Positions 1 through 18,309 of a DNA stretch of 18,515 nucleotides are shown in pieces. Source of the DNA: an uncultured Deinococcales bacterium (lineage in GTDB: Bacteria > Deinococcota > Deinococci > Deinococcales > JAAFIG01); the NCBI GenBank assembly GCA_964247135.1, contig CAXTTL010000081.1, positions 1-18,515 on the forward strand, written 5' to 3'. The notes under the pieces were generated by a model, which was not told the DNA's origin, made no database searches, and was given only the letters and a program-made list of their open reading frames with translations. Every line of letters begins with the position of its first letter. Position 1 is the first letter of the stretch. The translations under genes and the position numbers were made by a program.

Positions 1-390
1 AAAGTACGAATGCGTCGGGGTGTTCTCGAGGTAACTGTAATACTCTTTGACATCCTCACCGTGATTGCCTTCAGTTCCACTCAGACCAAACAATCTTTCT
101 TTGATGATCGGGTCGCGCCCATTCCAGACTGCCAGCGCCAGGCACAAATGCCCGTGGTCGTCGCTGATGCCCAGAAGACCATCCTCGTTCCAGCGGTACG
201 CCCTGGCTCGAGCTTGATCGTGCGGGAAATACTCCCAAGCCGCGCCGTTCGTGCTGTAATCTTCGCGCACCGTTCCCCAGGCGCGATCTGAAAGGTACGA
301 ACCCCACTGCTTCCAAGATTCAGTGCCAAGGCGGTCACGCTCGAGCCGTTCGCGCTCTGGGTTCAAGGCAACACCTGAACGGTGTGCCAT
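1..390 (-). CDS. MGH1-like glycoside hydrolase (GH63-type glucosidase), N-terminal part; runs off the window edge
   Basis: Translated by hand from ATG at 390: [77 protein letters not shown]...[44 protein letters not shown]. These are the characteristic N-terminal motifs of this family. An in-frame TGA lies just upstream, so 390 is the start. TATGAT lies 5 nt before the ATG. Not in the ORF track because there is no stop in the window. Confidence 0.88.
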
Positions 391-602
391 TTCAAATCAT
401 AACGGGCGCCAGCGCATTGTGGGTGATGTTGTATCGACATTTTTTGGTGTGTCCTCTCCGAAACCTGATCTGCATGGTACTTGAAATTTGCATTTTGGGC
501 AGGAACTGTTCCAAAAATGTTGCTCACGCTTTTCCTGAAGTTCGAGCGGTCTATTAATTAAATGGCTCGGTTAACACCAAAGCATGAAACCCACAACTCG
601 GA

Positions 603-3600
603 TTAGTGCTGCGGCACCAATTGCCCTGTCTCGAGTTTGGGTTCTTGCACGACTGCTGGGCGTTTGCGTTCAAACAAATAAAACGCCGCAGGCACCACAA
701 AGAACGTCAAAATTGCCGAGAGCAAAATCCCACCGAGCATAATCACACCCAAACCCTGCCCGTATTCTGAGCCTTCGCCACTGCCAAAAATCAGTGGAAA
801 GCTGATGACCAGCACGGTCAGGGTGGTCATGACAATCGGGCGAAAGCGCAGTTTGGCAGATTCGATCAGGGCATCTTCGAGCGGCATTAAACCAATGCGT
901 TCCATGACAAAATCGAGGTACAAAATCGCGTTCTTGGCGGAGAGTCCAATCAAGAGCAAGAATCCCATCAGGCTGAAAATATCGAGGCTGCCACCTTTGA
1001 AAAAGATAAACCACAACGCCCCAGCGATAGCCAGCGGTACGGGCAACAGCAGGTAAAGCGGGTAACGAAACGAGTTGAACTGAGCGCCCATGACCAGGTA
1101 CGCCAGGAACAGCGCTAGTGCAAAGACTTGTGGCAGCAACGAGGTCAATTGGCTGGCTTGGGCGGTTTGACTGAACGCACTCGAGGGGGCAAGGGTCACT
1201 TGATCGTCGAGGATTCCGGCTTTGGTCAGGTCAACAATAAATTGCTGTTGAAAGGCAAGCTGGGCTGGCGCATCAGGTCCAAGGTTAATCGAGAGCTGCG
1301 CGGTGTACAAACGGTTGGTGCGCGTGATGCTGAGTGGCGCTTGGCGTTGAACAATGCTGCCCAACTGCCCAACGCTGAGGTTGGCTTGTTGCACGCTCGA
1401 GTAGACCGGAAACGACAGCAAACTTTGCGCGTCCACCAAACTGGCGGGGTTGAGTTGCACTTGAATCGGGTAACTGAGCGAACCGATTTGCACGTTGCCC
1501 GCCGCAGAACCGCTCGTGTAGGTTTGAAGCACGCTGGCAACCGTGGCGGGGGTGATGCCCGTGCCAGAAAGCTTGTTGGGGTCTGGGATAAATTGATTCT
1601 CGAGACTCGATTGCGTGAGGTTGGTGGTCGCCGACAGCACGTTCGGGTTATTTTGCAGCATGTTCAAAGCGAGGTTGGTGCGTTGTTGCAAGACATCAAA
1701 ACTCGGCGCGGCAAGATTGACGTTCAAGCTCGAGCCTTGCCCGCCAAAGCCACCGCCGGCGCTGATCGAAACGCTAACACCTGGTTGGTCGGAGAACATG
1801 GTTCGGGTGACGCGTTGATACTGTGGAATCAGCGCGAAGACGTTCTGGCGTTGTGCCGATGGCACAAGTTGCAAGGTCAACGAGGCGCGATTGTTGATTT
1901 CGGTTTGAATGGTTTTGATTTCTTTGCGGTTTGAAAAATAACCCTCGAGCCGAGCCGCCAGTTGGTTGATGGTGTTCAGGCTTGTGCCTGAAGGCGTGCG
2001 CAGGTTCACGCTGATTGAACCGCTGTCGCTTTGCGGCACAAAATTAAACTGCATTCTCGGACCAACAAATAACAGTGTGCCGACAAAGAACACCACGGCA
2101 GCCAGCAAGACCCAAGAACTGCGTTTCAGCACGCCAGCCAGCGAGTTGACATAAGCATCACGGATGCTCGAGACAACACTTTCAGTCCATTGGTGCAAGG
2201 TTGTGGTCAGTGCCTCGAGGAAGTTGAACACGATGCGCACCAGGTAGTTGATGATGCCAAGCGCGAAGGGGTAGACGAGCATTGCTGCCAGCACAGGCAG
2301 GGGCAAGAATTTATAGATGGCGACCAACAACGCCAAACCGAGCGCAATCCCCCAAGTCGAACGCCACCAACTCAATCCCCAACGCATGGCTTCGGGGAAG
2401 CGTTTCAGGCTGCTCGAGAAATCATGCCATGAAAGCGGTTCAGAGTCGGGCGTGTACGCCATGCGAACGGTCAGGAAGAGCAAGGCTTCAAACCACGAGA
2501 AGAACACGGCTGCCGCCAAACCCAGCGCGAATTGTTGCAGGTAGACGCCAGCAAATCCGCCGATAAAACTGACGGGAATCAACACCGAAAGCACCGACAG
2601 CGAGGCGGCAGCCACGGCACTGAACACCTCGGATGCGCCCTTGAGAACTGCTTCTTTTCTCGAGAAACCCATCTCGCGGTATCGTTCGATGTTTTCGGCA
2701 ACGACAATCGAATCGTCCACCACAATGCCAATGGCAACCACCAAGGCGAGCAGCGAAACCAAATTGAAGGTAAAACCGAGCAAACTGTACAAAACTGGCG
2801 CGGCAGCCAGCGCGATTGGAATGGCGAGCACCACGGTAAACGCCGTGTTCAAACGCCCCAAGAACAACAAGACGATAAACGAAACCACCAACGCGGTGAT
2901 GAACAACTCGCGGTAGGTCGCGTTGACCGAAGCCGAAATCGGCGTGGTCGTGTCGGTGCTGACGGTCAGGTGATAACCCGCAGGCAAATTGGCTTTCTTG
3001 AGCGCGGTACGAACATTTTGCGCCACCGCCACTGCGTTGCTGCCTTGGGTTTGTTGAATGGCAACCAAAATAACGGGCAAACCATTGACGCGCACAAAAC
3101 CACTGGCGCTCGAGCTGTCCTGCACTTGCCCGAGGTCGGTGACGCGCACGCCGTGGGTGGGGTCAACCAAAATTTGATTGATCTGGTCAATGTTGGTCGG
3201 AATGTTTTGGGTCGAAAAACTGAGCGTGTCCGAACCTCGAGTGATCGTGCCAATCGGTTGGTTGATCGCAGCGCTGGTGATGGCAGTCGTGACGGTTTGC
3301 GGGTTGAGGTTGTAATAATTCAGTTTGCTCGGGTCGAGCAGCACTTGAAATTGACGGCTTGGACCACCCGAAAGGGTGACGTTCGCCACGCCATTCACCC
3401 GTTCTATTTGGGGAACGAGAATATTGGTCGCGTAATCTTGAACTTGCGCCATGCCGATGCCATTGGCAGCCAACCCAAACTCGAGAATCGGTTGTGAGTT
3501 GGAATCAAAAGTTCTGACGGTTGGCGCGGTGACACCTGTCGGCAAACGCCGCAACAACGAACTGGTCAGCGCCGCGACTTGGTTGGCGGCGCTGTTCTGG

Positions 3601-3947
3601 TCGATGCTCTGGTCAAAGGTTAACGTCACACGGCTCGAGCCTGCCGAACTGGTCGAGGCAATCGTGTTTAAGCCCGACAAACTCGAGACTGTGCCTTCGA
3701 CGAGTTGCGTCACTTGCTGGTCAACGATGGTTGGGGTCGCGCCAGGATAAGACACCGAAACGGCGACCACTGGTGTGTTGGAACTTGGCAGCAAATCCAC
3801 GCCGAGTTTGGTGGTGGCAACCAAACCGAAGACCACCACGGCGATAAAAATACCGATTGAAAACACGTACCTCGAGACGGAGAACCCCACCAAGGGATTG
3901 ATCCGATCAAACAAGCGTTCTTGCAAGTTCTTGAGTGGCTGTTGCAT
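603..3947 (-). CDS. RND efflux transporter permease subunit (AcrB/AcrD/AcrF family), 1114 aa
   Basis: TM4 motif GIVVDDSIVVAENI, KNAIL and LRFRPIVMTT proton-relay motifs, two large periplasmic domains. The start overlaps the MFP stop (TGATG). Confidence 0.96.
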   Translation of the reverse strand: MQQPLKNLQERLFDRINPLVGFSVSRYVFSIGIFIAVVVFGLVATTKLGVDLLPSSNTPVVAVSVSYPGATPTIVDQQVTQLVEGTVSSLSGLNTIASTSSAGSSRVTLTFDQSIDQNSAANQVAALTSSLLRRLPTGVTAPTVRTFDSNSQPILEFGLAANGIGMAQVQDYATNILVPQIERVNGVANVTLSGGPSRQFQVLLDPSKLNYYNLNPQTVTTAITSAAINQPIGTITRGSDTLSFSTQNIPTNIDQINQILVDPTHGVRVTDLGQVQDSSSASGFVRVNGLPVILVAIQQTQGSNAVAVAQNVRTALKKANLPAGYHLTVSTDTTTPISASVNATYRELFITALVVSFIVLLFLGRLNTAFTVVLAIPIALAAAPVLYSLLGFTFNLVSLLALVVAIGIVVDDSIVVAENIERYREMGFSRKEAVLKGASEVFSAVAAASLSVLSVLIPVSFIGGFAGVYLQQFALGLAAAVFFSWFEALLFLTVRMAYTPDSEPLSWHDFSSSLKRFPEAMRWGLSWWRSTWGIALGLALLVAIYKFLPLPVLAAMLVYPFALGIINYLVRIVFNFLEALTTTLHQWTESVVSSIRDAYVNSLAGVLKRSSWVLLAAVVFFVGTLLFVGPRMQFNFVPQSDSGSISVNLRTPSGTSLNTINQLAARLEGYFSNRKEIKTIQTEINNRASLTLQLVPSAQRQNVFALIPQYQRVTRTMFSDQPGVSVSISAGGGFGGQGSSLNVNLAAPSFDVLQQRTNLALNMLQNNPNVLSATTNLTQSSLENQFIPDPNKLSGTGITPATVASVLQTYTSGSAAGNVQIGSLSYPIQVQLNPASLVDAQSLLSFPVYSSVQQANLSVGQLGSIVQRQAPLSITRTNRLYTAQLSINLGPDAPAQLAFQQQFIVDLTKAGILDDQVTLAPSSAFSQTAQASQLTSLLPQVFALALFLAYLVMGAQFNSFRYPLYLLLPVPLAIAGALWFIFFKGGSLDIFSLMGFLLLIGLSAKNAILYLDFVMERIGLMPLEDALIESAKLRFRPIVMTTLTVLVISFPLIFGSGEGSEYGQGLGVIMLGGILLSAILTFFVVPAAFYLFERKRPAVVQEPKLETGQLVPQH

Positions 3948-5692
3948 CAGTTACCACCGCCCGTTTGACCTGCGGGTTGGGTTGCTGGTTGCGTTGTTGG
4001 TGGGGTGCTCGAGCTTCCAGTTGGGTCTGCCCCGATTGCCGCTGGCTTTTTGTGATGGTGTTTAACTGGCGTTGTGCCATCAGCGCCTGTCGCTGCGCCT
4101 TGGCTCGGAGCGGCATTGTTGGCATCTGCTGGAGTTGCGGAATTGTTCGCTCCTGCTGGCGTGGCAGCCTGTCCAGGAGTTCCGTTTTGACCGTCAACGC
4201 TCGAGTTATTTCCTGGTGGCGTAGCGCCGCCCTGAGTGTTGCCCTTCCATTTTCCTGCTCCACCCGAAGGAATGCTTGGAGCGCTCGAGCCTGGAGTGTT
4301 TTGTTGAGTTCCACCTTGACCACTTCCACCCGCAGCACCATTTTGTCCACCTCGAGTCCCGAAGCTGGTTTGCGTTAAATCGGTGGTGACTTTCGCACCC
4401 TCGAGCAGTCCTGGCGGTGGGTTGAGAATCACCTGAGCGCCCGCTGGTACGCCACTGACGGCGGCATCGCTGCCAGCCTGGGCGAGTACGGTGGCGGTCA
4501 GGGATTTGACTTGACCCGCCTGAATCGTGAAGACAAATGTGCGCGTGCCGTCGCTTTGCAACGACGAAATCGGTACGATTGTGCCTTTGGCAAGGTTGAC
4601 GCTGTAATTCACAATGCCAACCACTCCCGAAGCGGGCGCACTGGCATCAATCACTCGAGCAATCAACGGCACGTTTTGCGTGACAGGCGCGGCGGGACGT
4701 TCATCCACTTTGACCTGAAAATGCCCGTTGCCCGCATCAAAGCGGTAAATTCGCCCTGGCACAAAAGCGATGGCGTCGGCTGGCGGAACGCTGAATTTCA
4801 CTTCACGACTGGCGCTCGAGAGTGAGAACGCCGCCGCGCCTGGTGTGACCGCCTGCCCTGGGACGGCGTTGATGGCGGTGATCTGACCCGAAAACGGGGC
4901 TTTCAAGGTGGCGTTTGCCAAATTCAGTTTGGCTTGGCTGAGTTGAATTTGTGCCTGCGAAATGGCGAGTTTGAGTTGTGCCAGACCTTCGCCACCCGCC
5001 CGTTGATTTTGCGACAACGAATCCTGCGCGTTGGAAAGATTCCCCTGTGCCGTCTCGAGCGCGGTTTTGGCATTCTCGAGATCGGTTTTGGAAATCCCGC
5101 CCACCGCGTAGACTTTTTGATCGGAGACATACGTTCTGTTTGCCGCGTCCAAGGCACTTTGCGCGGCTGAGACTTGCTGCTCGAGTTTTTGGGTGGCTTG
5201 CACGGTGTTGGTGTCTTGGCTTTTGAGATTTATTTGTGCGTTCTCGAGCGCCAGTTGCGCGTTCTGGGCGGTCAGTGCCAGTTGCGTGGTATCGAGTTGC
5301 ACCACGGCTTGACCAGCCTGCACGCTGTCGCCGACTTTGACCAAAATCTTGCTGGCAGTGCCAGAGGCTTGCGCGGCAACCTGGCTGACCATCACTGGAA
5401 CAACCGTGCCTGCGCTGTTGCGGTTTGCAGCCAAAGAGCTGGCTTTGACCGTGACGGCTTGAACCGGAATGATCGCATTGCGACCTCCACTTCTGCCGCC
5501 CTGCCGCCCCGAACCGCCCTGAGAAAATGAACCTTGACCTGCACCCGCTCCTGTTTGACTTGCGCCTGCAACCCCATTCTGACTCGGGTTGTGAATCAAG
5601 TAACCGCCAGCGCCAGCCGCCACAACCAAAGCGCCAAAGACCAAATTTCGTCCAACATTACCGCCGCGTTTGGGGGGTTGAGCCGCAATCAT
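3947..5692 (-). CDS. RND periplasmic adaptor (membrane fusion protein) with a long low-complexity C-terminal tail, 581 aa
   Basis: N-terminal TM anchor, lipoyl half-motifs (VKVGDSVQAGQ; LKAPFSGQI), long alpha-hairpin, GGAGG RBS, directly upstream of the RND permease. Confidence 0.93.
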   Translation of the reverse strand: MIAAQPPKRGGNVGRNLVFGALVVAAGAGGYLIHNPSQNGVAGASQTGAGAGQGSFSQGGSGRQGGRSGGRNAIIPVQAVTVKASSLAANRNSAGTVVPVMVSQVAAQASGTASKILVKVGDSVQAGQAVVQLDTTQLALTAQNAQLALENAQINLKSQDTNTVQATQKLEQQVSAAQSALDAANRTYVSDQKVYAVGGISKTDLENAKTALETAQGNLSNAQDSLSQNQRAGGEGLAQLKLAISQAQIQLSQAKLNLANATLKAPFSGQITAINAVPGQAVTPGAAAFSLSSASREVKFSVPPADAIAFVPGRIYRFDAGNGHFQVKVDERPAAPVTQNVPLIARVIDASAPASGVVGIVNYSVNLAKGTIVPISSLQSDGTRTFVFTIQAGQVKSLTATVLAQAGSDAAVSGVPAGAQVILNPPPGLLEGAKVTTDLTQTSFGTRGGQNGAAGGSGQGGTQQNTPGSSAPSIPSGGAGKWKGNTQGGATPPGNNSSVDGQNGTPGQAATPAGANNSATPADANNAAPSQGAATGADGTTPVKHHHKKPAAIGADPTGSSSTPPTTQPATQPAGQTGGGN

Positions 5693-5835
5693 GATGCACC
5701 TCCAAGCTTCAGAATTTCGTGCGAATCAACTCGAGTGTTTTCGGCGCGAGTTGAATCGCAAATCAGGTTTTCAACACGAGTTTTGTCACTCGAGTCGCTC
5801 AGGTTTTGGTTTAAGAATGCTTGGCTGTTTTTCAT
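5689..5835 (-). CDS. Putative 48-aa leader or small protein, translationally coupled to the MFP gene
   Basis: AAGGA RBS 6 nt before ATG 5835. MKNSQAFLNQNLSDSSDKTRVENLICDSTRAENTRVDSHEILKLGGAS; its stop overlaps the MFP start as ATGA (5689-5692). Confidence 0.45.
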   Translation of the reverse strand: MKNSQAFLNQNLSDSSDKTRVENLICDSTRAENTRVDSHEILKLGGAS

Positions 5836-5891
5836 GGTTGTTCCTTTCCGCTCCAAAGTTGTTCTTGGCACAATCACTTGCCTGTGCGTTT

Positions 5892-5926
5892 AGGAGACAT
5901 CCAAATCGTGGAGTGAAGATGAAGGC
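5892..5926 (-). promoter_or_regulatory. Regulon box 1 plus -10 position, upstream of the RND operon
   Basis: GCCTT CATCTTCACTCCAC gatttggatg TCTCCT on the minus strand. 18 nt (5906-5923) are identical, in inverted orientation, to 13997-14014. Its -10 is the weakest of the set. Confidence 0.75.
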
Positions 5927-5938
5927 TCGAATGCAAAA

Positions 5939-5973
5939 GCCTCCATGATTGCTCCATTTTTGAGTAACATAAT
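5939..5973 (+). promoter_or_regulatory. Regulon box 2 plus -10; leaderless promoter of the orphan response regulator
   Basis: GCCTC CATGATTGCTCCAT ttttgagtaa CATAAT, then 6 nt to ATG 5980. Confidence 0.72.
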
Positions 5974-5979
5974 TTGGTC

Positions 5980-6660
5980 ATGAAAGTTTTGTTGCTCGAA
6001 GACGACAACTCCATACGAATGCCCCTCGCGGCGAATTTGCGCGAAGCGGGGCATGAGGTGATTGAAGCAGATCGGGTCGCCGTTGCCGAACCAATTGCGC
6101 TCGTGCAAAGCTTTGACGTGTTTTTGTTTGATGTTGGTTTACCAGAGGGCAAAGATGCCGGTTTTGGATTGGTACAGCGCTTACGTTCAAAAGGGGTGCA
6201 AACACCTGTTCTGTTCTTGACCGCCCGAGATGCCCCCGAAGATCGCGCTCGAGCGTATGGTGCTGGGGCTGACGATTACTTGCTGAAACCGTTTTTACTG
6301 TCCGAAGTTCAAACCAGACTGAAAGCACTCGTCACTCGAGCGCCAGATTCCGCGCACGGTGTGATGGTGTGCGGAGATTTGCGACTGGATTTTTTCAACA
6401 AAACCGTGTACCTCAACGGCAACCCCGTGCGGCTTTCCAACAAAGAATACGCGACCCTCGAGTTGCTGGCATCCAATCCAGGTCGGGTTTTCAGTCATTT
6501 GGAGTTGATCCAACGCATCTACGATGATGCTCAAATTGTTCCAGCCGTGGTTGATCTGAACGTCATGAACATCCGCCGAAAGCTTGCCGCCTGGACGCTC
6601 GAGACCGTGGATCAGGTGGGCTTTCGCTTTCCATCGTGCGGAGCTATGGCAGGCGATTGA
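5980..6660 (+). CDS. OmpR/PhoB-family response regulator (orphan; paralog of 11125-11790)
   Basis: REC motifs LLEDD, FDVGLP, FLTARD and DDYLLKPF, plus a winged-helix C-terminus. Start set at ATG 5980, 6 nt after CATAAT. Confidence 0.93.
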   Translation: MKVLLLEDDNSIRMPLAANLREAGHEVIEADRVAVAEPIALVQSFDVFLFDVGLPEGKDAGFGLVQRLRSKGVQTPVLFLTARDAPEDRARAYGAGADDYLLKPFLLSEVQTRLKALVTRAPDSAHGVMVCGDLRLDFFNKTVYLNGNPVRLSNKEYATLELLASNPGRVFSHLELIQRIYDDAQIVPAVVDLNVMNIRRKLAAWTLETVDQVGFRFPSCGAMAGD

Positions 6661-6689
6661 AGTTTAATCTCGAGGATCATTGGGGGTTT

Positions 6690-7946: not shown

Positions 7947-8044
7947 GTAAAACCACTAGGTTGACAAGGGTCAAATTTCGCCTCAACAATCACAAATTTT
8001 AACATTCTGACTCGAGCAACTGAACGTGATTTTTGTTTCGTCGC

Positions 8045-8079
8045 GCCTTCACCCTCACTCCACTTTGCTGCGTCATTCT
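8045..8079 (+). promoter_or_regulatory. Regulon box 3 plus -10
   Basis: GCCTT CACCCTCACTCCAC tttgctgcgt CATTCT; 17/19 identical to box 1; upstream of the 8153 gene. Confidence 0.75.
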
Positions 8080-8152
8080 GAAACAAAGACTTCAAACTCG
8101 AGCTTGAAAGCTGATAACTGGGTTTGGTCAACATGATCCTGGAGGCTTGACA

Positions 8153-8446
8153 ATGGAATTGCGCATCAACAATCAAAAGGTCAACGTGTTGCTATGCTCG
8201 GACGAATCTTTAAGTGCTGAAGAGATCAAAATCTTTGAACGCTTTGACCACATTTTAAGAGCCAATCCCAAATTCCAAGCGCGTTATCCAAGGGCGTGCC
8301 TCGAGTCGGCGGCATTTGACCCAGATCAAAAATCGAAAATGCGTTTGTCGTACACGTGCAAACATGGGCGCGTCGAATTTGAAGGGTCGTTGGCATTTAT
8401 GACCGCCATTGATTTCAAGCACCACACCGTGATGCTGGCAATCTGA
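8153..8446 (+). CDS. Hypothetical cytoplasmic protein, 97 aa
   Basis: GGAGG RBS at 8141-8145 before ATG 8153, preceded by regulon box 3. No family recognised. Confidence 0.72.
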   Translation: MELRINNQKVNVLLCSDESLSAEEIKIFERFDHILRANPKFQARYPRACLESAAFDPDQKSKMRLSYTCKHGRVEFEGSLAFMTAIDFKHHTVMLAI

Positions 8447-8464
8447 AACTCGAGCCAGTTTTCG

Positions 8465-10031: not shown

Positions 10032-10066
10032 TTGCTCGAGGGTCGCTCGAGACTTGTTGAAAGGGC
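10032..10066 (-). repeat. Duplicated 5' leader element, copy A
   Basis: 33/35 identical to 10792-10826; contains two CTCGAG 5 nt apart just upstream of the RBS. Confidence 0.9.
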
Positions 10067-10791: not shown

Positions 10792-10826
10792 TTGCTCGAG
10801 GGCTGCTCGAGACTTGTTGAAAGGGC
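10792..10826 (-). repeat. Duplicated 5' leader element, copy B
   Basis: 33/35 identical to 10032-10066. Confidence 0.9.
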
Positions 10827-10897: not shown

Positions 10898-10945
10898 TCA
10901 GTCTCCTTCGTTGAGTCGCAGGTGGTTCTTCCTGCTGATGGGTTT

Positions 10946-10980
10946 AGTATGCGAGGATTTGGTGGATCGAACATGTAGCG
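10946..10980 (-). promoter_or_regulatory. Regulon box 6 plus -10, upstream of the secreted-protein gene
   Basis: CGCTA CATGTTCGATCCAC caaatcctcg CATACT on the minus strand. Confidence 0.75.
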
Positions 10981-11112
10981 ATTTAGTCTGTTTGGCTTCA
11001 TCTTTGCGTTATTTTTTGTTAACTGATTGCCTCTCAATTTTTGAGTTTTTGGTGTCTGTCACGCCTTCAAAAGCAATTCTCGAGCCTCGAGTTTGCAACC
11101 TACCCAAAGCGG

Positions 11113-11118
11113 TATACT
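11113..11118 (+). promoter_or_regulatory. -10 element of a leaderless TCS operon promoter
   Basis: TATACT 6 nt before ATG 11125; no Shine-Dalgarno; no regulon box at the 10-nt spacing. Confidence 0.7.
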
Positions 11119-11124
11119 TCATTC

Positions 11125-11790: not shown

Positions 11791-13130
11791 CACCGCTCAA
11801 CGAACGGCTTAGTCCTCGTACTTTAATTGGGTTATTCTCGAGTCTGGTGCTGCTGTTGTCATTGGCGACGTTGACGGTGGTTTCTGGTTTGACACTGCAA
11901 GCCTCAAACTTACGGGACATTGATGCGGTCTTGAGCGAACAATCACGAATTATTGTGACCGAGGCGCAGTCGAAAACCAACCTCAACATCAAAGACCCGA
12001 CGGTTGTGCTCGAGGCTTTGCGACTTCGCACTGGCTCGAGTGTGGCGGCGGTTTACCGCGATCAAAGACCAGTCTGGAGAGGTGGTTCGATCAAAGCACC
12101 AAATGAACCATTTGATCTCAATTTTTTCTCGAATCCGGCAAGACGGTCTGTGGTGACCAGCAACGATTGGCGTGTGCTTAGTCGCCGCGACAATGATGTG
12201 ATCGTGCAGGTCGCGCAACCGCTGGCAGTGTTGAACTCAACCATGCTCAACTATTGGCGCAACACCGCCATTGGAACGGCTGTGATTGCCTTGCTGGCTG
12301 GTCTTTTCATCAATTATATGCTCGGGCGTTTGATTCGACCACTCGGCTTGCTGGCGGCTCGAGTTCAACATTTGGATTCAGACAAACCCATTCCTGCCAC
12401 GCGGGTCAAAGGTGAAATTGGCATTTTGGCAAGGGGTTTGGAAAAAAGCATTACAGATTTAAAAGAAACCCGACTTCGAGAATCACGGTTTCTTGCCGAT
12501 GCCAGCCACGAGTTGCGCACACCAATCACGGCACTGCTGGCAGACCTCGAGCACAGTTTGTCGCGCACACGATCATCGGAGGATTTGCTGGGGGTCATCA
12601 CCAGATCGCAAAAATCGGCGGTGCATTTGCGCGATCTGGCTTCAAACCTGCTGGCACTCTCGCGTACTGGGGCGGGCGCTGCACCCGTTCGGGTGGCAGT
12701 TGATGTGCTCGAGGTGGCGCTCGAGGTCACAGACCGCCTTGTGCCTTTGGCGGCGCAAAAAGGTTTGGGCTTGGATGCCGACGGCGATTTGGCAATCATT
12801 CAGGGCGATCCGGTTTTGTTGGCGCGGATGCTCGAGAATCTGGTTTCAAACGCGATCAAGTACACCAGCGCGGGCAGCATCAGCGTTCATGTCGCAACCC
12901 AACCCGATAGCGTTATTTTGACCGTGAAAGACACGGGCATCGGCATTCCGAACGACAAACTCGAGCATTTATTCGAGCCGTTCAAACGCGCCCACCTCGA
13001 GCACCGCGACGGTTTTGGACTTGGGCTAGCTGTGGTCAAAAGTGTGACTGAGGGGCATGGTGGACACGTGCGCCTCTCGAGTGAAGTCGGGATTGGCACG
13101 AATATTGAGGTTGTCTTGCCAAAAAATTGA
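11787..13130 (+). CDS. Sensor histidine kinase (2 TM, HAMP, HisKA, HATPase), 447 aa
   Basis: H-box FLADASHELRTPI, N-box ENLVSNAIKY, G1 DTGIGI, F-box LFEPF, G2 GFGLGL; starts at ATG 11787 overlapping the regulator stop. Confidence 0.95.
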   Translation: MTPLNERLSPRTLIGLFSSLVLLLSLATLTVVSGLTLQASNLRDIDAVLSEQSRIIVTEAQSKTNLNIKDPTVVLEALRLRTGSSVAAVYRDQRPVWRGGSIKAPNEPFDLNFFSNPARRSVVTSNDWRVLSRRDNDVIVQVAQPLAVLNSTMLNYWRNTAIGTAVIALLAGLFINYMLGRLIRPLGLLAARVQHLDSDKPIPATRVKGEIGILARGLEKSITDLKETRLRESRFLADASHELRTPITALLADLEHSLSRTRSSEDLLGVITRSQKSAVHLRDLASNLLALSRTGAGAAPVRVAVDVLEVALEVTDRLVPLAAQKGLGLDADGDLAIIQGDPVLLARMLENLVSNAIKYTSAGSISVHVATQPDSVILTVKDTGIGIPNDKLEHLFEPFKRAHLEHRDGFGLGLAVVKSVTEGHGGHVRLSSEVGIGTNIEVVLPKN

Positions 13131-13159
13131 GTTCACAAAACGGTAGTCTGAAATTGAAT

Positions 13160-13432
13160 TCAGTGATTGTTGACGGTTATGCTGTAAGCAATTAACAATG
13201 CCAAAACCATGCCCAAACCCAGGCTTTCAATCAGCACCTCGAGCGATGTGATGTGAAATCCGTAAACGTCATTCAAAAGGTACGTGGGCATCAGGCTGAA
13301 AATTCCAACCGCCAGCGAAAAGATGACAGCCAGCGATCCATACCAAAGCACGGATTGCAACACCACAATCAAATTTCTGTGGTCGCTCGAGTGGGCTATG
13401 GGTTGATGAACTGGGATTTGTAAACTGTTCAT
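13160..13432 (-). CDS. Small membrane protein (2 predicted TM), 90 aa
   Basis: GGAGG RBS at 13439-13443, two hydrophobic stretches, preceded by regulon box 7. Confidence 0.75.
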   Translation of the reverse strand: MNSLQIPVHQPIAHSSDHRNLIVVLQSVLWYGSLAVIFSLAVGIFSLMPTYLLNDVYGFHITSLEVLIESLGLGMVLALLIAYSITVNNH

Positions 13433-13450
13433 GGTGTACCTCCACCAGGA

Positions 13451-13485
13451 ATGTTGCGCCCCTCACATGGATTGACCGTGAAGCC
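13451..13485 (-). promoter_or_regulatory. Regulon box 7 plus -10
   Basis: GGCTT CACGGTCAATCCAT gtgaggggcg CAACAT on the minus strand. Confidence 0.72.
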
Positions 13486-13520
13486 ATAAAAAATCAGACC
13501 GCACAATGGCGGTCTGATTT
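13486..13520 (-). terminator. Intrinsic terminator of the basic exported-protein gene
   Basis: Perfect 12-bp inverted repeat AAATCAGACCGC-acaatg-GCGGTCTGATTT (13491-13520) running into a U-tract on the minus strand. Confidence 0.85.
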
Positions 13521-13547
13521 GGGGGTGGAAGCATTTAAAGCAAAAAC

Positions 13548-13850
13548 TTATTTGGATTTTGTGTTGCCAGTACGAATTTTGCTGCCACGAGCCTTGCTGG
13601 TGCGTGCTTTGCTGGTGCGTGCTTTGCTGGTGCGTGCTTTGCTGACACGACGCTTGTTGGTGCGGGTGCTTGCCTTGTTGCGGTTGTGGCGCTTGGTTTG
13701 AACGCTCTTTTTGCTGTGCGTAGTCTTGGCAACCGTGGTGACAACGGGTTTGGTGGCAACGGCTTTGCTGGTTGGTGCAGCGTTGGCAATCATGACACTC
13801 GAGAGGGCGGCGGCGAGGATCAAACCAATGGTACGGACTTTGATGTTCAT
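13548..13850 (-). CDS. Exported, highly basic, low-complexity protein (Asr-like), 100 aa
   Basis: AAGGAG RBS; signal peptide MNIKVRTIGLILAAALSSVMIANA; mature part rich in K/R/T/S with no acidic residues and SKART repeats. Confidence 0.8.
   Translation of the reverse strand: MNIKVRTIGLILAAALSSVMIANAAPTSKAVATKPVVTTVAKTTHSKKSVQTKRHNRNKASTRTNKRRVSKARTSKARTSKARTSKARGSKIRTGNTKSK
13594..13644. repeat. 15-bp coding tandem repeat, 3.4 copies
   Basis: TTGCTGGTGCGTGCT x3 plus TTGCTG; encodes (SKART)n on the minus strand. Confidence 0.95.
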
Positions 13851-13918
13851 AAGAACTCCTTTTTCTTGAACCTCGAGCGATCCACCGCTGCTGCGGTGGT
13901 CTTCTTTGGTCTGGGCGT

Positions 13919-13953
13919 AGTTTCTATCTTTCAGATGGACTACACATGAAACA
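13919..13953 (-). promoter_or_regulatory. Regulon box 8 plus -10, upstream of the Asr-like gene
   Basis: TGTTT CATGTGTAGTCCAT ctgaaagata GAAACT on the minus strand. Confidence 0.62.
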
Positions 13954-13993
13954 CCGTTCGAGGTTTGATGTTCGGTTTGACCTGGCTGGGTTT

Positions 13994-14028
13994 GCTTTCA
14001 TCTTCACTCCACGAAGAGCTTGCAAACT
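13994..14028 (+). promoter_or_regulatory. Regulon box 9 plus -10; probably leaderless promoter of the GluR0-like gene
   Basis: GCTTT CATCTTCACTCCAC gaagagcttg CAAACT, then 7 nt to ATG 14036. Confidence 0.78.
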
Positions 14029-14035
14029 TCGCCAC

Positions 14036-15199
14036 ATGAAAACCAAAATTCTCTCCAGACAAAATCCGACCCGTCCATCAAGCCACCTCAGCTCGAGTCT
14101 CGAGGATCAAGGACACAGAACGATGCTGGCATTTATGGCGTGGTTCATGGCACTTTTCCTGATTTTCAGCCCTAATGTTTTTGCCCAGCAAGCGCCGCAA
14201 AAAACCTTGCGCGTGGCGATCAAACCGCTGACCCCGTTCGTCACCAGCGCCGCCTCTGGGGTGGGTTATGAAGGCTTTAGCATCGATCTTTGGAATGCGA
14301 TAGCGGCAAAAAACGGTTGGAAAACCGAGTTTCAAATCAAAAAGAGTGTTCAAGAAGTCATCGCGTCGGTGCAACAAGGGCAAGCCGATGTCGGTATTTC
14401 GGGCATCAGCATCACCAAAGAACGCGAGTCAATACTGGATTTTAGTCTGCCAATGTTCAACGCGGGTTTGCAGGTGGTCGTGCCGAGCCATCCCGCGTTT
14501 GACCCATTGCAGGCACTCAGCAACCTGTTCTCGCCGCAACTCGAGTTTATTGGTTTGCTGATTTTTGGCTGCATCTTGGTTGCCGGTCACGTGATTTGGT
14601 TGGTCAACCGCAAGAATCCAGATTTCCCCAAAGGTTATCTGCCTGGGGTGCTCGAGGGCATGTGGTGGGGGGTGGTGAACTTTCCGCAAAGCAGCCTGGG
14701 GAGCGAAAACCCCAAATCCTGGTTGGGACGAGGCTTGAGCGTGATTTGGTTGGTGCTTGGGGTTGGACTGCTGGCAAACTTTACCGCCAACGCCACGGCA
14801 ACCTTGACCGTGCAACAGATTCAAGGTTCGATTCAGGGCGTCTCGGACTTGCCTGGCAAGCGCGTTCTGACGGTTAAGGGAACGACCTCGGAATCGTACT
14901 TGAATGCCAGCAACATCAAGAACTCGAGCGTTGCCACCGTTGAAGATGCTCTGACGCAACTCGAGGCAGGTCAAGCCGATGCTGTGGTTTACGACGCGCC
15001 TGTGCTGCAATATTTTGCCAGTCACGACGCCAAGGGCAAAATTGCGGTGATCGGCAGCGTTTTTAAACCCGAGTATTATGGCATTGCGCTGGCAAACAAA
15101 AGCCTGCTGCGCAAACCCATCAATGAAACCCTGACCGACTTAAGTTCCAGCGGCAATTTGCTGGTCTTGCAGCAAAAATGGTTTGGCGATGGCAATTAA
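14036..15199 (+). CDS. GluR0-like ligand-gated ion channel (split family-3 amino-acid-binding domain around a TM-P-TM pore)
   Basis: Signal-like segment; S1 (EGFSIDLW, ISITKERESILDFSLP); TM1; pore helix EGMWWGVV; TM2 ending ANFTANATATLT; S2 (KGTTSE, AVVYDAPVL, YYGIAL). Start at 14036 (leaderless) or 14123. Confidence 0.85.
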   Translation: MKTKILSRQNPTRPSSHLSSSLEDQGHRTMLAFMAWFMALFLIFSPNVFAQQAPQKTLRVAIKPLTPFVTSAASGVGYEGFSIDLWNAIAAKNGWKTEFQIKKSVQEVIASVQQGQADVGISGISITKERESILDFSLPMFNAGLQVVVPSHPAFDPLQALSNLFSPQLEFIGLLIFGCILVAGHVIWLVNRKNPDFPKGYLPGVLEGMWWGVVNFPQSSLGSENPKSWLGRGLSVIWLVLGVGLLANFTANATATLTVQQIQGSIQGVSDLPGKRVLTVKGTTSESYLNASNIKNSSVATVEDALTQLEAGQADAVVYDAPVLQYFASHDAKGKIAVIGSVFKPEYYGIALANKSLLRKPINETLTDLSSSGNLLVLQQKWFGDGN

Positions 15200-15270
15200 A
15201 CTCACCTCAAGGTAGGGGATTTTAAACTCGAGCCTGTGATTTTTCCCGAGTCAAACGGTTGGTTCTCGAG

Positions 15271-15276
15271 TATGCT
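15271..15276 (+). promoter_or_regulatory. -10 element of a leaderless deacetylase promoter
   Basis: TATGCT 6 nt before ATG 15283; no RBS; no regulon box. Confidence 0.65.
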
Positions 15277-15282
15277 GAAAAA

Positions 15283-16503
15283 ATGCGATTCTGGCAATTC
15301 ACAGCGGGTATTGCCACCCTGCTGGTTGGGGCGGTTCTGGCTCAAAGCACTCGTCAACCCTTGCCAACCGTTCAACCCCCTGGCGCAGTGCAACCAATTG
15401 CACCTGGCTATCGCCCGACGGCTGGGCTGCCGCAAATCAAACTCGAGCCAGCCATTCCAGAGGTCAAAAAAGTCGAGTACGCCAGCAACGGTTTTATCGA
15501 GGTGGCTCATGCTTTGGTGCTCGAGCCAAGACGCGAGGCTGGGGAGCAAAACGATTTCAGGTTGGCACACGCGGCGGTCAGCGCCAGCTACGCGGCGCGT
15601 CCTGGTTTGGCGGAGGTCGATGTCAGCGTCTATGAAGCCGAGAGCTTTGACGGCATTGGTGGTCCACTACCGCGCTTGACCGCCGGCGTGCCTCGAGCGG
15701 AGTTGCTCAATTTTTTAAACGCCAAACCGAATGCCAACAATGGCTACGACCGTCAATGGCTCAATCCAAACATCACCGCGCCCAAGCGAGCGCCGCAGCC
15801 AGTGCTCGAGCAAACGCCTGTTTTTCACGGCACGACCCCGCAGTTGCGATCCATGCAGGTTCAACAGCTTGCCGCACAAGTTTCAGGCGGCGCGAAGGGT
15901 GGCTTGTACTTTTTTGGCAACTCGAGAAAACCTTATGTTGCCCTGACTTTTGACGACGCCCCGCACCCGTTGTTCGAGCCTTTGTTGCTTGACTCTTTGC
16001 GACGGGCGGGTATCAAAGCCACATTTTTTTGCATTGGACGAAATGCTCTGGCGTACCCGTATTTTGTTAAAGACATGGTGAGAGACGGTCATGAGATTGG
16101 CAATCACACTTTCCATCACGTTCGCTTGCCCAAGCTGCCCGCAATTGAAGTTCAAGACGAACTCGAGCAAACCAATGCCTTGCTGCAAAAAATTTCTGGT
16201 CAAACCATTCGCTACTTTCGTCCTCCTGGCGGTGAATATTCGGCGCAAACGCTAAAAATCGCCACCAGCCTGGGTTTGATTACCACCTTCTGGACGGACG
16301 ACCCAGGTGATTTTGACAACCCAGGCGATAAAGTGCTCGAGTCGCGCCTGAAAGCCAAATTGCGTCGCGGTGGCATAGTTTTACTTCATGACAACGTGCT
16401 CGAGACGATTCAGATTGTCGTGCCGTTTTTGAAGGTGGCAAGTCAAGAACGCTTTGATCTTGTGCCAATCGGTCAACTCGATGCCCAAGATGGCAGACCT
16501 TAA
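15283..16503 (+). CDS. Exported polysaccharide/peptidoglycan deacetylase (CE4, NodB domain) with an unknown N-terminal domain, 406 aa
   Basis: Signal peptide MRFWQFTAGIATLLVGAVLA; CE4 motifs TFDDAP, GNHTFHH, FRPPGG, DPGDF, LLHD. Confidence 0.92.
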   Translation: MRFWQFTAGIATLLVGAVLAQSTRQPLPTVQPPGAVQPIAPGYRPTAGLPQIKLEPAIPEVKKVEYASNGFIEVAHALVLEPRREAGEQNDFRLAHAAVSASYAARPGLAEVDVSVYEAESFDGIGGPLPRLTAGVPRAELLNFLNAKPNANNGYDRQWLNPNITAPKRAPQPVLEQTPVFHGTTPQLRSMQVQQLAAQVSGGAKGGLYFFGNSRKPYVALTFDDAPHPLFEPLLLDSLRRAGIKATFFCIGRNALAYPYFVKDMVRDGHEIGNHTFHHVRLPKLPAIEVQDELEQTNALLQKISGQTIRYFRPPGGEYSAQTLKIATSLGLITTFWTDDPGDFDNPGDKVLESRLKAKLRRGGIVLLHDNVLETIQIVVPFLKVASQERFDLVPIGQLDAQDGRP

Positions 16504-16516
16504 ACGCAACAATCGA

Positions 16517-16551
16517 GACTCCATCTTCGCTCCATTTTTGTGCCGCATCCT
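16517..16551 (+). promoter_or_regulatory. Regulon box 10 plus -10
   Basis: GACTC CATCTTCGCTCCAT ttttgtgccg CATCCT, upstream of the 16609 gene. Confidence 0.75.
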
Positions 16552-16608
16552 GATGAGCGAAGAACGCCAGCCCGAGAGACACTCGGAACGGCAGAAAAAG
16601 GAGTCAAG

Positions 16609-16971
16609 ATGAGCTTTCAAGATTTGGCAAACAACGCACAACAAACCGCCGCCCAAGGTCTCGAGACCGCCAAGCAAGCCACCGAGGGCTTGGTCAGTAA
16701 CCCGGGAGCGACCCTCGAGGGTGGTGCGGCGGCAGCCGGTCAAAGCGCACAAAGCGCCGTAGCAGATATCAAACAGGTGGTCACCAACCCAGGTGATATC
16801 CTGCACAGCACCGAAGATACCCTCAAGCATGGTTTTGAAAGCGCCACCGGTGCGGTCGGCAGTGTCGTGAAAGAAGCCGAAGAAGCCGTGAAGCATGGCA
16901 TTGAGAGCATCGGCAACATGGTTTCTGGAATTTTTGGTGGCGGCAAACACGAAGAAGAACCAAAAGCGTAA
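16609..16971 (+). CDS. Ala/Gly-rich amphipathic-helix protein (LEA/apolipoprotein-like composition), 120 aa
   Basis: AAGGAG RBS before ATG 16609; internal repeats VSNPG/VTNPG, and LKHGFES/VKHGIES 22 residues apart. Confidence 0.78.
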   Translation: MSFQDLANNAQQTAAQGLETAKQATEGLVSNPGATLEGGAAAAGQSAQSAVADIKQVVTNPGDILHSTEDTLKHGFESATGAVGSVVKEAEEAVKHGIESIGNMVSGIFGGGKHEEEPKA

Positions 16972-16976
16972 TCCGC

Positions 16977-17195
16977 ATGAGACAAATTCGTTGGTTTATA
17001 TTCATACTGGTCAGCGCTGCGGTGTTGTTGTTTGGTCTGAGCAACCTGATTCCGCTTCGCGTCAACTTCCTGTTCTTTTACGCTTGGGTCAACCTGCTCG
17101 CCTTGATCGCCGGAACCTTTGTTCTGGGCGCACTGGTCGGTCTGATTCTTGGACTGTGGCATGACCACAAAGCCAGACCCGCAACCATTCGCTAA
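16977..17195 (+). CDS. Small membrane protein, LapA/DUF1049-like, 72 aa
   Basis: Two TM segments with the pattern LFGLSNLIPLRVNFLF...LIAGTFVLGALVG; starts 5 nt after the previous stop. Confidence 0.72.
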   Translation: MRQIRWFIFILVSAAVLLFGLSNLIPLRVNFLFFYAWVNLLALIAGTFVLGALVGLILGLWHDHKARPATIR

Positions 17196-17271
17196 ATCCT
17201 AAAACCGAATTGGGTCGCTTGAATTTTCTCGAGCGACCTTTTGTGTTGTGTCTGATGCCATGCTCTGAACT

Positions 17272-17306
17272 GACTTCACGTTGACTCCATCAAACCAACG
17301 CAAACT
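17272..17306 (+). promoter_or_regulatory. Regulon box 11 plus -10; leaderless promoter
   Basis: GACTT CACGTTGACTCCAT caaaccaacg CAAACT, then 7 nt to ATG 17314. Confidence 0.78.
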
Positions 17307-17313
17307 AAAGACC

Positions 17314-18018
17314 ATGAAGCCCGCAACCCTCAATCTAAAGCCTGCCTTCAGCAACCTGCCAGATGAATCCGACCAAAGCCCAGGTGTGCCACTCGAGCCG
17401 TTGTGGTACGCACGCTTGGCAATCGTGGTCATTATCGTGCTGCAAATTGCGCTCAGCCAACGGTTCACGCTCGGTCCAAACTGGTTGCTGCCGATGCTCG
17501 AGATGCTGATGTTGATTCCGCTGGCGTTTACCCCTCGAGACCATGTGATCGGCAAGCACCGTTCAATGCGTGTCGTGGCAATCGCTTTGATTGCCCTGAC
17601 CAATGTTTCAAACATGATTTCACTTGTCATTTTGGTGCGCTCATTGCTGCACGGCAACAAAGCTGGCGGCACAACCCTATTGCTCGAGGCACTGAATATT
17701 TGGTTCACGAACATGATTATTTTCGCTTTGTGGTACTGGGAACTTGATCAGGGTGGTCCGCATGAACGCGGTCAGGTTGGTTGTGAAGCACCAGATTTTT
17801 TGTTCACCCAAATGGGCAGCCCTCAATTTGCCAAACCAGGCTGGCGTTCTGGTTTTATGGATTATCTGTTTTTGTCCTTTACCAACGCCACCGCCTTCAG
17901 CCCAACCGACACTTTGCCGCTCTCGAGTTGGGCAAAGTTACTCATGATGGTTCAGTCTGGCACGTCACTTTTGACCGTGGCGTTGGTTGCCAGCCGTGCC
18001 GTGAATATTTTGACCTGA
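17314..18018 (+). CDS. DUF1345-like membrane protein, 234 aa
   Basis: Motifs IWFTNMIIFALWYWELDQGGP, PDFLFTQM, DYLFLSFTNATAFSPTDTLPL, SRAVNIL. Confidence 0.8.
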   Translation: MKPATLNLKPAFSNLPDESDQSPGVPLEPLWYARLAIVVIIVLQIALSQRFTLGPNWLLPMLEMLMLIPLAFTPRDHVIGKHRSMRVVAIALIALTNVSNMISLVILVRSLLHGNKAGGTTLLLEALNIWFTNMIIFALWYWELDQGGPHERGQVGCEAPDFLFTQMGSPQFAKPGWRSGFMDYLFLSFTNATAFSPTDTLPLSSWAKLLMMVQSGTSLLTVALVASRAVNILT

Positions 18019-18045
18019 GCGTTCGCCTAAAAAAGGAGTGAGAAA

Positions 18046-18309
18046 ATGATTGAAAGTATTCCAGATATTGCCGTGGTTGTTATTTTGGGTTTCGTGCTGT
18101 TCGGTGCAAAAAACATTCCCGATATTGGACGCAACCTGGGGCGCGGCTTGCGCGAATTTAGGGGCGGTATGAAAGACCTGAAAAATGAAATGGATTCGAT
18201 CCTCGAGCCACAAACATACGAGGTTCAAACCGTGACCGCCCGTGCGACAGACCCAATTACGCCCACCGTCATAAGTGTCGAAGATCAAGCTAAACGGCTC
18301 GAGTCATAG
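18046..18309 (+). CDS. tatA: Twin-arginine translocase TatA/TatE family subunit, 87 aa
   Basis: Short N-terminal TM ending in LFG, amphipathic helix KNIPDIGRNLGRGLREFR; AAGGAG RBS. Confidence 0.9.
   Translation: MIESIPDIAVVVILGFVLFGAKNIPDIGRNLGRGLREFRGGMKDLKNEMDSILEPQTYEVQTVTARATDPITPTVISVEDQAKRLES

Follow-up and report, generated by a model that had tools for sequence, protein, structure and literature searches.

The window examined here is the whole of an 18,515-nucleotide stretch of DNA, contig C81 (CAXTTL010000081.1) of the genome of an uncultured Deinococcales bacterium (GCA_964247135.1, referred to as G000), the assembly of which consists of 5,091,702 bases in 386 contigs with 52.7% GC and an estimated completeness of 84%. 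The window encodes an AcrB-like RND pump and a HlyD-like fusion protein, followed by MFS and GGDEF genes and by a protein resembling a bacterial glutamate-receptor channel, and along its length the palindromic hexamer CTCGAG recurs (Table 1). An earlier reading of these letters without database searches (the sequence-only reading) had reported about 112 copies of this word, roughly 25 times the expected number, and had likened it to HIP1, the highly iterated palindrome (HIP) of cyanobacteria. A motif scan returned exactly 112 copies with coordinates in agreement, and the 25-fold excess equals the ratio obtained genome-wide under an order-0 Markov model (24.8). In 200 dinucleotide-preserving shuffles of the window the word occurred 3.02 times on average (standard deviation 1.81, maximum 11) and a count of 112 was reached in none of them, giving an observed to shuffled ratio of about 37.

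Table 1. Features of the window, with positions counted from its first nucleotide
Feature	Position	Strand	Remark
Span of all 112 CTCGAG copies	25..18303		First copy 25-30, last copy 18298-18303; spacing mean 165 bp, minimum 7, maximum 556
AcrB-like RND pump gene	603-3947	-	Pfam; 16 CTCGAG sites
HlyD-like fusion-protein gene	3947-5692	-	Pfam; 11 CTCGAG sites
AcrB-like and HlyD-like genes together	603..5692		Ordinary genes with CTCGAG at 4.8-6.3/kb
Non-coding example between MFS and GGDEF genes	8011..8454		4 CTCGAG (8011, 8097, 8300, 8449)
CTCGAG doublet (10035, 10046)	10035..10051		11 bp apart
CTCGAG doublet (10795, 10806)	10795..10811		11 bp apart; outside listed open reading frames
CTCGAG doublet (11079, 11086)	11079..11091		7 bp apart
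CTCGAG doublet (12708, 12720)	12708..12725		12 bp apart
417-aa protein, periplasmic solute-binding and ligand-gated ion-channel domains	13946-15199	+	GluR0-like bacterial glutamate-receptor channel
CTCGAG doublet (14092, 14099)	14092..14104		7 bp apart

The hyper-abundance of CTCGAG was confirmed for G000 as a whole. With 33,925 copies (6.66/kb, or 6,663 per Mb) it is the top-ranked hexamer, the words ranked 2-9 all overlap it, and the first independent hexamer is GGTTTT with 6,081 copies; about 4% of all bases of the genome belong to copies of CTCGAG. The enrichment is not confined to one contig, as all 297 contigs of at least 5 kb carry the word, at densities of 2.6-10.5/kb (mean 6.7, standard deviation 1.2). 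It was also correctly read as occurring in all three coding frames and outside genes: in the window 44, 14 and 32 copies lie in frame 0 (CTC GAG, Leu-Glu), frame 1 (xCT CGA Gxx) and frame 2 (xxC TCG AGx), with 22 more outside the 13 listed open reading frames (ORFs), and the genome gives the same picture with 17,974, 4,624 and 6,829 coding copies, respectively. Using a crude ORF call of our own (4,583 ORFs, 88% of the DNA), the density in non-coding DNA (7.60/kb, 4,550 sites) exceeded that in coding DNA (6.53/kb).

Composition, codon usage and dipeptide usage were excluded as causes on the basis of Markov and masked models, shuffles, GC classes and the denser non-coding DNA. Under Markov models of orders 0 to 4 the observed/expected ratios were 24.8, 35.2, 14.4, 3.45 and 1.24, so that the enrichment persisted at orders 0-3 and fell away at order 4. 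The last value is not a refutation, because the pentamers on which the order-4 model is built mostly come from CTCGAG itself (about 88% of CTCGA pentamers sit within the hexamer, as derived from an expectation of 27,444 and the TCGA count of 54,610) and the test is circular. When CTCGAG was masked from the background, orders 1-3 expected 586, 564 and 883 copies, an enrichment of 38-60-fold, and none of the one-mismatch variants of the word was depleted. The 29,427 coding copies compare with 4,106 ± 65 after a within-gene shuffle of synonymous codons that preserves every protein and the codon counts (observed/expected 7.2) and with 1,734 ± 35 after a shuffle of codon order (10 replicates each). 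In 2-kb windows the enrichment over the order-0 expectation was 21-26-fold in each GC class. The view that codon or dipeptide bias alone is insufficient was thus borne out, a 7-fold excess being left by the synonymous shuffle and non-coding DNA being denser. Nor are the sites copies of a repeat, since their flanks carry almost no information. The low order-4 ratio and the commonness of Leu-Glu as a dipeptide might suggest that the excess is an artefact arising from composition, from the use of codons or dipeptides or from a family of dispersed repeats, but we regard the likelihood of this as negligible given that dinucleotide shuffles, Markov orders 0-3 and masked backgrounds all return 3.5-60-fold excesses.

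CTCGAG is dense enough to have changed the proteins of G000. Leu-Glu is the most over-represented dipeptide of the proteome (23,460 against 9,893 expected, 2.37-fold); the ratio of Glu-Leu is 1.01, and Met-Glu (0.52), Val-Glu (0.73), Leu-Gln (0.85) and Leu-Asp (0.90) are depleted. The codon pair CTC-GAG encodes 76.6% of Leu-Glu pairs where codon usage predicts 11%, and CTC makes up just 15% of the Leu codons that precede a residue other than Glu. The same can be followed in SecA, where 15 sequences of the family (73-97% protein identity) have 7-15 Leu-Glu pairs each, 116 of the 148 pairs being CTCGAG; in 11 sequences whose loci bear the title Deinococcus or Deinococcaceae the number of Leu-Glu pairs is 2-8. 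At SecA columns 248, 857, 914 and 600 the family has Leu-Glu, and the outgroups mostly have Leu-Gln, Ile-Glu, Leu-Ser and Ile-Glu, respectively.

The repeated unit is an exact 6-bp word. The palindrome stops at the hexamer, with no complementary flank pair at 79% of sites (75% by chance) in coding and non-coding DNA alike. At 3,889 fully non-coding sites there is a weak and symmetric flank preference for A at -3 (44%), G at -1 (34%), C at +1 (36%) and T at +3 (43%), the information amounting to at most 0.12 bit per position. The 33,523 gaps between copies in the genome have a mean of 148 bp and a coefficient of variation of 0.96, which is near geometric. A check of spacing periodicity, as had been suggested, revealed the 3-nt codon period and no other up to 300 bp. 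All five close doublets singled out by the sequence-only reading are present (Table 1); however, they are not a favored arrangement, because pairs less than about 20-50 bp apart are under-represented in the genome, those at distances of 7, 11 and 12 bp numbering 87, 70 and 100 against about 226 expected at each distance.

With respect to genes, CTCGAG is about twice as dense over the first 40 nt behind stop codons (12.3 and 11.4/kb) as the baseline of 6.5/kb, and immediately ahead of starts it reaches about 9/kb. Copies that begin 5 nt beyond the stop codon's first base form a sharp peak (131 of 2,966 ORFs, compared with about 30 at neighboring offsets); at this offset the last A of the stop codon falls on the favored -3 position. 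The word is also contained in eight of 66 predicted tRNAs. The longest gap without CTCGAG in 5 Mb is 2,644 bp, and 16 gaps exceed 1.5 kb. Ten of these were inspected and had 27-48% GC (seven of them 40% or less); Pfam analysis of the ORFs of seven of the ten identified STAND-type ATPases, a reverse transcriptase-trypsin-like protease fusion and an O-antigen ligase, with several ORFs having no match. Such low-GC gaps are read as recent acquisitions that do not yet carry the word. Four islands of 27-35% GC free of CTCGAG (C13:4758-14537, C70:14168-16419, C4:51525-53438 and C1:102561-104483) encode a 1,183-aa BTAD/AAA_16/TPR protein, an AAA_16 protein, a reverse transcriptase-trypsin-like protease fusion adjoining a tRNA gene and several ORFs without a Pfam match, and look like recently acquired defense islands.

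CTCGAG is a genuine highly iterated palindrome not only of this genome but of its clade. All 18 other genomes of the family, belonging to five genera, carry it at 4.3-6.8/kb, and 17 secA loci titled as metagenome-assembled genomes (MAGs) of Deinococcales or Deinococcota bacteria have 3.6-7.0/kb over a range of 45-60% GC. Loci of Trueperaceae MAGs mostly have 1.3-2.6/kb, and the word is avoided in loci of named Deinococcus species (0-7 copies per 12-23 kb against 4-13 expected). In a sample of the phylum consisting of 200 genomes drawn at a completeness of at least 80%, the density was 0.01-0.2/kb in genus g7 (83 genomes), about 0.85/kb in genus g9 (30 genomes of about 2.2 Mb), which is the same as that of the control word GAGCTC, and 1.4-3.6/kb in g13-g15, in G196 (g35) and in several genera of family f2. 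Codon pairs of SecA were then compared in 30 of the 200 genomes, these being single-gene samples in which kin are not independent. Leu-Glu was written as CTCGAG in 41/57 cases in g13 (12.6 expected), 38/48 in g14 (12.6), 24/24 in g15 (8.5), 7/7 in g35 (1.2), 6/8 in g11 (1.8), 8/12 in g37 (1.0) and 7/12 in g28 (0.9); the corresponding figures were 4/23 in g9 (7.5 expected), 6/23 in g27 (6.6), 2/12 in g41 (2.8), 0/8 in g7 and 1/14 in g6. A weaker form of the codon-pair bias is therefore present in near-complete genomes of several other Deinococcales genera, and the codon-pair and density data together indicate a bias that is order-wide but patchy and strongest in the uncultured family of G000. 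The suggestion that the word may be shared with other Deinococcota was upheld to this extent.

A cyanobacterial origin of G000 was considered and rejected, there being no Photo_RC match in the genome. A scan of metagenomes with SecA found no relative of more than 73% identity. Of viral contigs with three close copies of CTCGAG, the 120 loci listed mostly had 64-69% GC and were also rich in GAGCTC; a few were low in GC and free of GAGCTC, had a length of 1-5 kb and bore no similarity to G000.

CTCGAG is still turning over. Gains and losses were followed in G000 and five congeners over four regions (approximately 57 kb of G000 at 84-90% identity), these better-conserved regions being used as the window itself is just 66-70% identical to its congeners. 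In ordered comparisons, the pairs of which are not independent, CTCGAG was kept by the partner in 826 of 1,002 cases (82%) compared with 50% for other hexamers, and of the sites aligned in all six genomes 99, 59, 24, 22, 17 and 24 were present in six, five, four, three, two and one of them, respectively. Where the other genomes were identical, loss of an ancestral CTCGAG was seen in 9.7% of focal instances, and loss of other conserved hexamers in 16.1%. The Leu-Glu pairs of SecA restricted to single lineages use CTCGAG in the same share (13/17) as conserved ones (67/85). CTCGAG occupancy is also kept by genera of the family whose SecA proteins are just 73-76% identical, so that the force must be at work to the present.

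Of 58 single-step losses 46 were transitions, of which the CpG accounts for 21, positions 1/6 for 14 and positions 2/5 for 11; with 15 CpG transitions expected if these were even, there is no marked CpG hotspot and no strong C-to-T excess. None of 19 single-step gains came from the CpG-transition class. Some gains were multi-base synonymous rewrites with untouched flanks. In secA a Thr-Ser-Ser stretch is ACC AGC AGC in five relatives and ACC TCG AGC in G000, where three base changes replace one serine codon box by the other, and in another lineage ACC AGG has become ACT CGA; multi-base gains also occur in the secA alignments at column 3274 of G000 C155. Five of seven strict single-lineage gains with the other genomes identical differ by at least two bases against 15% in the background, although the numbers are small. 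That this proves a templated 'writing' event was rejected, as 30% of losses are also multi-base and the counts are small, and it is kept as a hint; tandem mutations, imported patches or fast successive steps may account for these changes. Two public sequencing runs, in which 6-8% of the sampled words occurred, were uninformative, yielding low-depth contigs of 130-335 bases in which none of 40 listed differences fell in CTCGAG (about 1.5 expected).

The strength of the force was estimated by taking the log ratio of CTCGAG to a one-mismatch neighbor as its scaled advantage, which holds if the genome is near mutation-fixation equilibrium. Non-coding DNA has 4,547 copies of CTCGAG against a mean of 146 per one-off variant (ln 3.4), and the observed/expected values of the word and its variants genome-wide, ln(60 / 0.8 to 3.3), give 2.9-4.3. 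On the assumption of equilibrium, the population-scaled advantage of the intact hexamer over any one-mismatch neighbor would thus be roughly 3-4, for which standard fixation formulae predict that sites would be lost roughly one-tenth to one-third as fast as under neutrality and gained about three times as fast. A per-site bias as weak as this is compatible with the 82% retention and with the rates of site loss and precursor conversion, and no single site would therefore matter much.

The sequence-only reading had proposed that CTCGAG is maintained by an orphan methyltransferase together with methyl-directed repair. Methylase families were searched in G000 by profile, and orthologs were sought in the 18 family genomes at an identity of at least 50%. 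The methylases identified were two MmeI-like proteins, one 1,499-aa N6_Mtase/Eco57I protein, one HsdM, four N6_N4, two C5 and one of the Dam class. All six ordinary type II methylases adjoin a nuclease of a recognisable other family, and each pair matches an avoided word, where the words are those we take to be the specificities of the enzymes from which the six nuclease families are named. These pairs are L025 with a SacI-family nuclease (29.7 bits, cut-off 19.3; GAGCTC, 0 copies), L019 with a PvuII nuclease (CAGCTG, 15 copies), L023 with an NgoPII nuclease (GGCC, 380 copies), L024 with an Eco29kI nuclease (CCGCGG, 11 copies), L018 with an MvaI/BcnI nuclease (CCSGG, 856 copies, compared with 13,311 of CCWGG) and L020 with a NotI-family nuclease (25 bits; GCGGCCGC / CGGCCG, 0 / 3 copies). 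The remaining candidate, L021, has no nuclease neighbor, and its orthologs in G005 and G012 have in-frame stops. Orthologs were present in none of the family genomes for L018, two for L019, three each for L021, L023 and L024, four to five for L020 and six for L025. When queried with the methylases of G000, the single-contig genome G011 gave no N6_N4 match and one C5 match, and G008 and G015 gave no C5 match. The proposal of an orphan methyltransferase is not supported by this inventory, in which the six methylases are all paired with other specificities and none occurs in more than six of the 18 family genomes.

The SacI-type system has features of its own. The Dam-class methylase gene overlaps the 364-aa SacI-family nuclease gene (PF09566) at C320:1061-2985 (locus L290), and the SacI word GAGCTC, which is CTCGAG with its letters in reverse order, is absent from the 5.09 Mb (0 copies against about 864 expected). 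GAGCTC has 0-25 copies in most family genomes, and the pair is found in 6/18, so its avoidance is wider than the pair. The other five complete type II pairs are located on contigs C36, C14, C178, C189 and C207 (loci L005, L011, L012, L004 and L006), and G000 avoids well over a dozen palindromic hexamers.

A more direct search for a methylase like PaeR7I or XhoI, or for its cognate endonuclease, found none in G000. The Eco57I-family matches in the relatives fall into two groups, long type IIG proteins and proteins of about 500 aa. The latter were considered as a conserved orphan methylase and rejected; eight that were fetched are HsdM-like and mutually 24-56% identical, and seven of the eight best match the HsdM gene region of G000. 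No small PaeR7I-like methylase of the Eco57I family was found in G000 or among the Eco57I matches of its relatives, and the XhoI-family nuclease model (PF04555) had no match in G000, this model also being silent in all 14 control genomes. Further N6/N4 methylases were sought among 41 ORFs with the motif (D/N/S)PP(Y/F/W), in which the new ones checked turned out to be BpsA-like, two DUF559 and, by eye, one aminotransferase. No methylase specific for CTCGAG was found in G000, and none of those detectable is cognate to the word or conserved; in the relatives the PF02384-only, MT-A70 and EcoRI-methylase-type families were not searched. A methylase of another family, one missing from the assembly or one differing between genomes is possible. 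The DUF559 domain has a Vsr-like fold and is encoded by four genes in G000 (C290:108-440, C252:2763-3125, C61:2806-3117 and C142:2030-2329), two of them 92% identical. In Caulobacter the DUF559 protein VsrA is described, in the text accessible to us, as the Vsr-like partner of a solitary methylase (PMC12907096), and the DUF559 genes of G000 may be taken as a lead toward CTCGAG.

As the best overall explanation we tentatively favor, at somewhat less than even odds, a weak and pervasive fixation bias at the level of DNA, which would hold CTCGAG at about 40-60 times expectation. This bias would affect coding and non-coding resident DNA alike and would operate in all lineages of the family, and more weakly in several other Deinococcales genera. 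It could arise from a conserved DNA reader of two-fold symmetry, other than a recognisable restriction-modification methylase, that would favor CTCGAG alleles when genome copies recombine with one another or with kin DNA that has entered the cell. Such a process would amount to a molecular drive comparable to that of uptake sequences, and the word could also mark DNA as 'self'. Of the possibilities raised by the sequence-only reading, a nucleoid, recombination or uptake signal now ranks above the methylase model. The stricter proposition that CTCGAG is a methylation-independent 'genome word', with a reader conserved in much of Deinococcales biasing recombination or uptake toward it, is more doubtful. 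If true, it would have written about 34,000 copies and some 13,500 extra Leu-Glu pairs, its density would serve as a marker of self-DNA, and it would represent a second, mechanistically distinct kind of highly iterated palindrome.

Several observations weigh against the fixation bias with a symmetric reader. No candidate reader protein was identified. Conserved one-off precursors were converted to CTCGAG in 1 of 118 instances (0.85%) against a background of 0.77%, which excludes a large acceleration and, being compatible with a 3-fold one, fits the estimated weak force with no positive support for it. Single-lineage absences among the six congeners (80) outnumber presences (37) by unrooted parsimony, and this could reflect slow net decay instead of equilibrium, or a weakness of the parsimony. 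Known uptake sequences are longer and not palindromic, and the exact 6-bp palindromic form, classically the hallmark of type II methylases or nucleases, favors methylation. In addition, neither rpoB (PF00562) nor the 16S 515F primer site was found in the 84%-complete assembly, so that the absence of a gene from G000 is weak evidence.

The methylation alternative, which reportedly follows Elhai's model for cyanobacteria, holds that an orphan methyltransferase for CTCGAG (or TCGA) creates and keeps the sites through methylation-biased mismatch or very-short-patch repair. We judge this unlikely, although it is the foremost of the rivals. Methylases typically target exact 6-bp palindromes, an 84%-complete assembly could lack the gene, and the four DUF559 genes recall the partner of the solitary methylase of Caulobacter (PMC12907096, as far as its accessible text goes). 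In the portions available of the respective papers, each alternate cyanobacterial HIP is accompanied by a cognate methylase (PMC4390886) and CTCGAG-specific m5C methylation exists elsewhere, for example in Halorubrum (PMC8112702). Set against these points are the pairing of all six type II methylases with nucleases of other specificities and avoided words, the in-frame stops of L021 orthologs in two relatives and its presence in 3/18 family genomes, the restriction of every G000 methylase to at most six of the 18, the nature of the Eco57I-family matches in relatives (type I or IIG proteins of 24-56% mutual identity), the lack of an m5C-type hotspot among transition losses (21/46 in the CpG class, 15 expected) and the lack of depletion of any one-off variant. 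That the word is instead a Chi-like self-marker, which stops an AddAB-like helicase-nuclease and is kept dense in resident DNA by selection, with foreign DNA lacking it, we consider improbable. AddAB-like pairs, in which two PDDEXK_1 proteins of about 750-1,150 aa are encoded side by side, are found in this family and in three others and are absent from two of three genomes of the motif-avoiding genus g7, the recently acquired low-GC islands lack CTCGAG, and a palindrome would work from either end; yet g9 genomes carry the same kind of nuclease pair with no enrichment, the Chi sites known so far have an asymmetric, strand-oriented sequence and a much lower enrichment, and nothing links the nuclease to CTCGAG. 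AddAB-size PDDEXK_1 proteins occur in 12/18 family genomes and also in families without CTCGAG enrichment.

Slightly less probable again is an architectural role, in which an abundant dimeric nucleoid-associated protein would prefer CTCGAG and weak selection for compaction or segregation would maintain it. The symmetric context out to ±3, the deficit of copies closer than about 20-50 bp and the weak per-site advantage are consistent with this, but no candidate protein was found and nucleoid proteins rarely demand an exact hexamer. Very unlikely, in our estimation, is a fossil word, written by an ancestral force and now just decaying. The excess of single-lineage absences and the precursors that convert no faster than background would agree with decay; however, family genera at which synonymous sites are saturated keep about 78% of Leu-Glu as CTCGAG, with young pairs like old ones, all 18 family genomes keep the density given above over locus GC contents of 45-60%, and CTCGAG is lost less often than other hexamers. 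The fixation bias thus remains our preferred, if tentative, explanation.

For thirty years highly iterated palindromes have posed a puzzle in cyanobacteria, to which cognate methylases are the main clue. HIP1 is GCGATCGC, and alternate HIPs are also known (Elhai, 2015, PMC4390886; Xu et al., 2018, PMC5861425; both as far as their accessible texts go). Like CTCGAG, these are GC-rich palindromes far above expectation, occurring within genes in all frames and between genes, common to a whole clade, conserved beyond background and of unexplained function. HIP1 differs in being an octamer of another phylum, CTCGAG being a hexamer. According to the text available, HIPs occur at about 0.5-2.5/kb (PMC4390886), so that CTCGAG at 6.7/kb is several times denser. 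The accessible texts also describe a quasi-periodic spacing of HIPs (PMC13756078, PMC5861425), in contrast to CTCGAG, which has no period beyond that of codons, and a word-specific methyltransferase wherever a HIP is frequent (PMC4390886), whereas none was found for CTCGAG in G000. The description of CTCGAG as HIP1-like therefore holds for its abundance, its presence in all frames and in non-coding DNA and its clade-wide occurrence, but not for quasi-periodicity or for a cognate methylase.

The uptake sequences of Pasteurellaceae (USS) and Neisseriaceae (DUS) are 9-12 nt long, asymmetric and present at about 1/kb. They share with CTCGAG a genome-wide hyper-abundance on both strands, an occurrence inside genes at a cost to proteins, rarity in recently acquired DNA, enrichment just after genes and a weak per-site drive that suffices; CTCGAG differs as a 6-bp palindrome at 6.7/kb with flanks of at most 0.12 bit, for which no receptor is known. 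Chi sites lack symmetry, follow the direction of replication and are just a few-fold enriched. They resemble CTCGAG in being short over-represented words that could mark self DNA, and AddAB-like genes are present in the CTCGAG-rich family; CTCGAG is self-complementary, however, and the AddAB-like pair is also found where CTCGAG is not enriched. The same word is the target of XhoI, PaeR7I and BsuMI, and its avoidance by named Deinococcus species is as expected of a restricted site. Targets of the XhoI type would be avoided or protected, whereas in G000 CTCGAG is approximately 60-fold enriched, with no XhoI-family nuclease or candidate methylase found.

No publication describing CTCGAG as a hyper-abundant word was found in a search that left out subscription journals and supplements, including the tables of the HIP papers, and the accessible part of Elhai's text (PMC4390886) makes no mention of CTCGAG. 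New here are the bookkeeping that leaves no detected methylase for CTCGAG, the patchy order-wide reach, the estimate of a weak per-site force, the near-random spacing and the 12-bp symmetric context with its stop-codon offset. CTCGAG represents a HIP-like case in another phylum which is denser, has made Leu-Glu the top over-represented dipeptide and has no cognate methylase seen. If the absence of a methylase holds, methylation would not be required for such words, and the focus would shift to recombination, uptake and self-recognition. Composition-based binning, gene finding and the detection of horizontal transfer in these genomes are affected by a word filling 4% of bases.

The end of the contig is occupied by a repeat of about 110 bp (18405-18515 of the window), present in dozens of copies of 82-100% identity in all five congeners, which resembles REP/RAYT elements.

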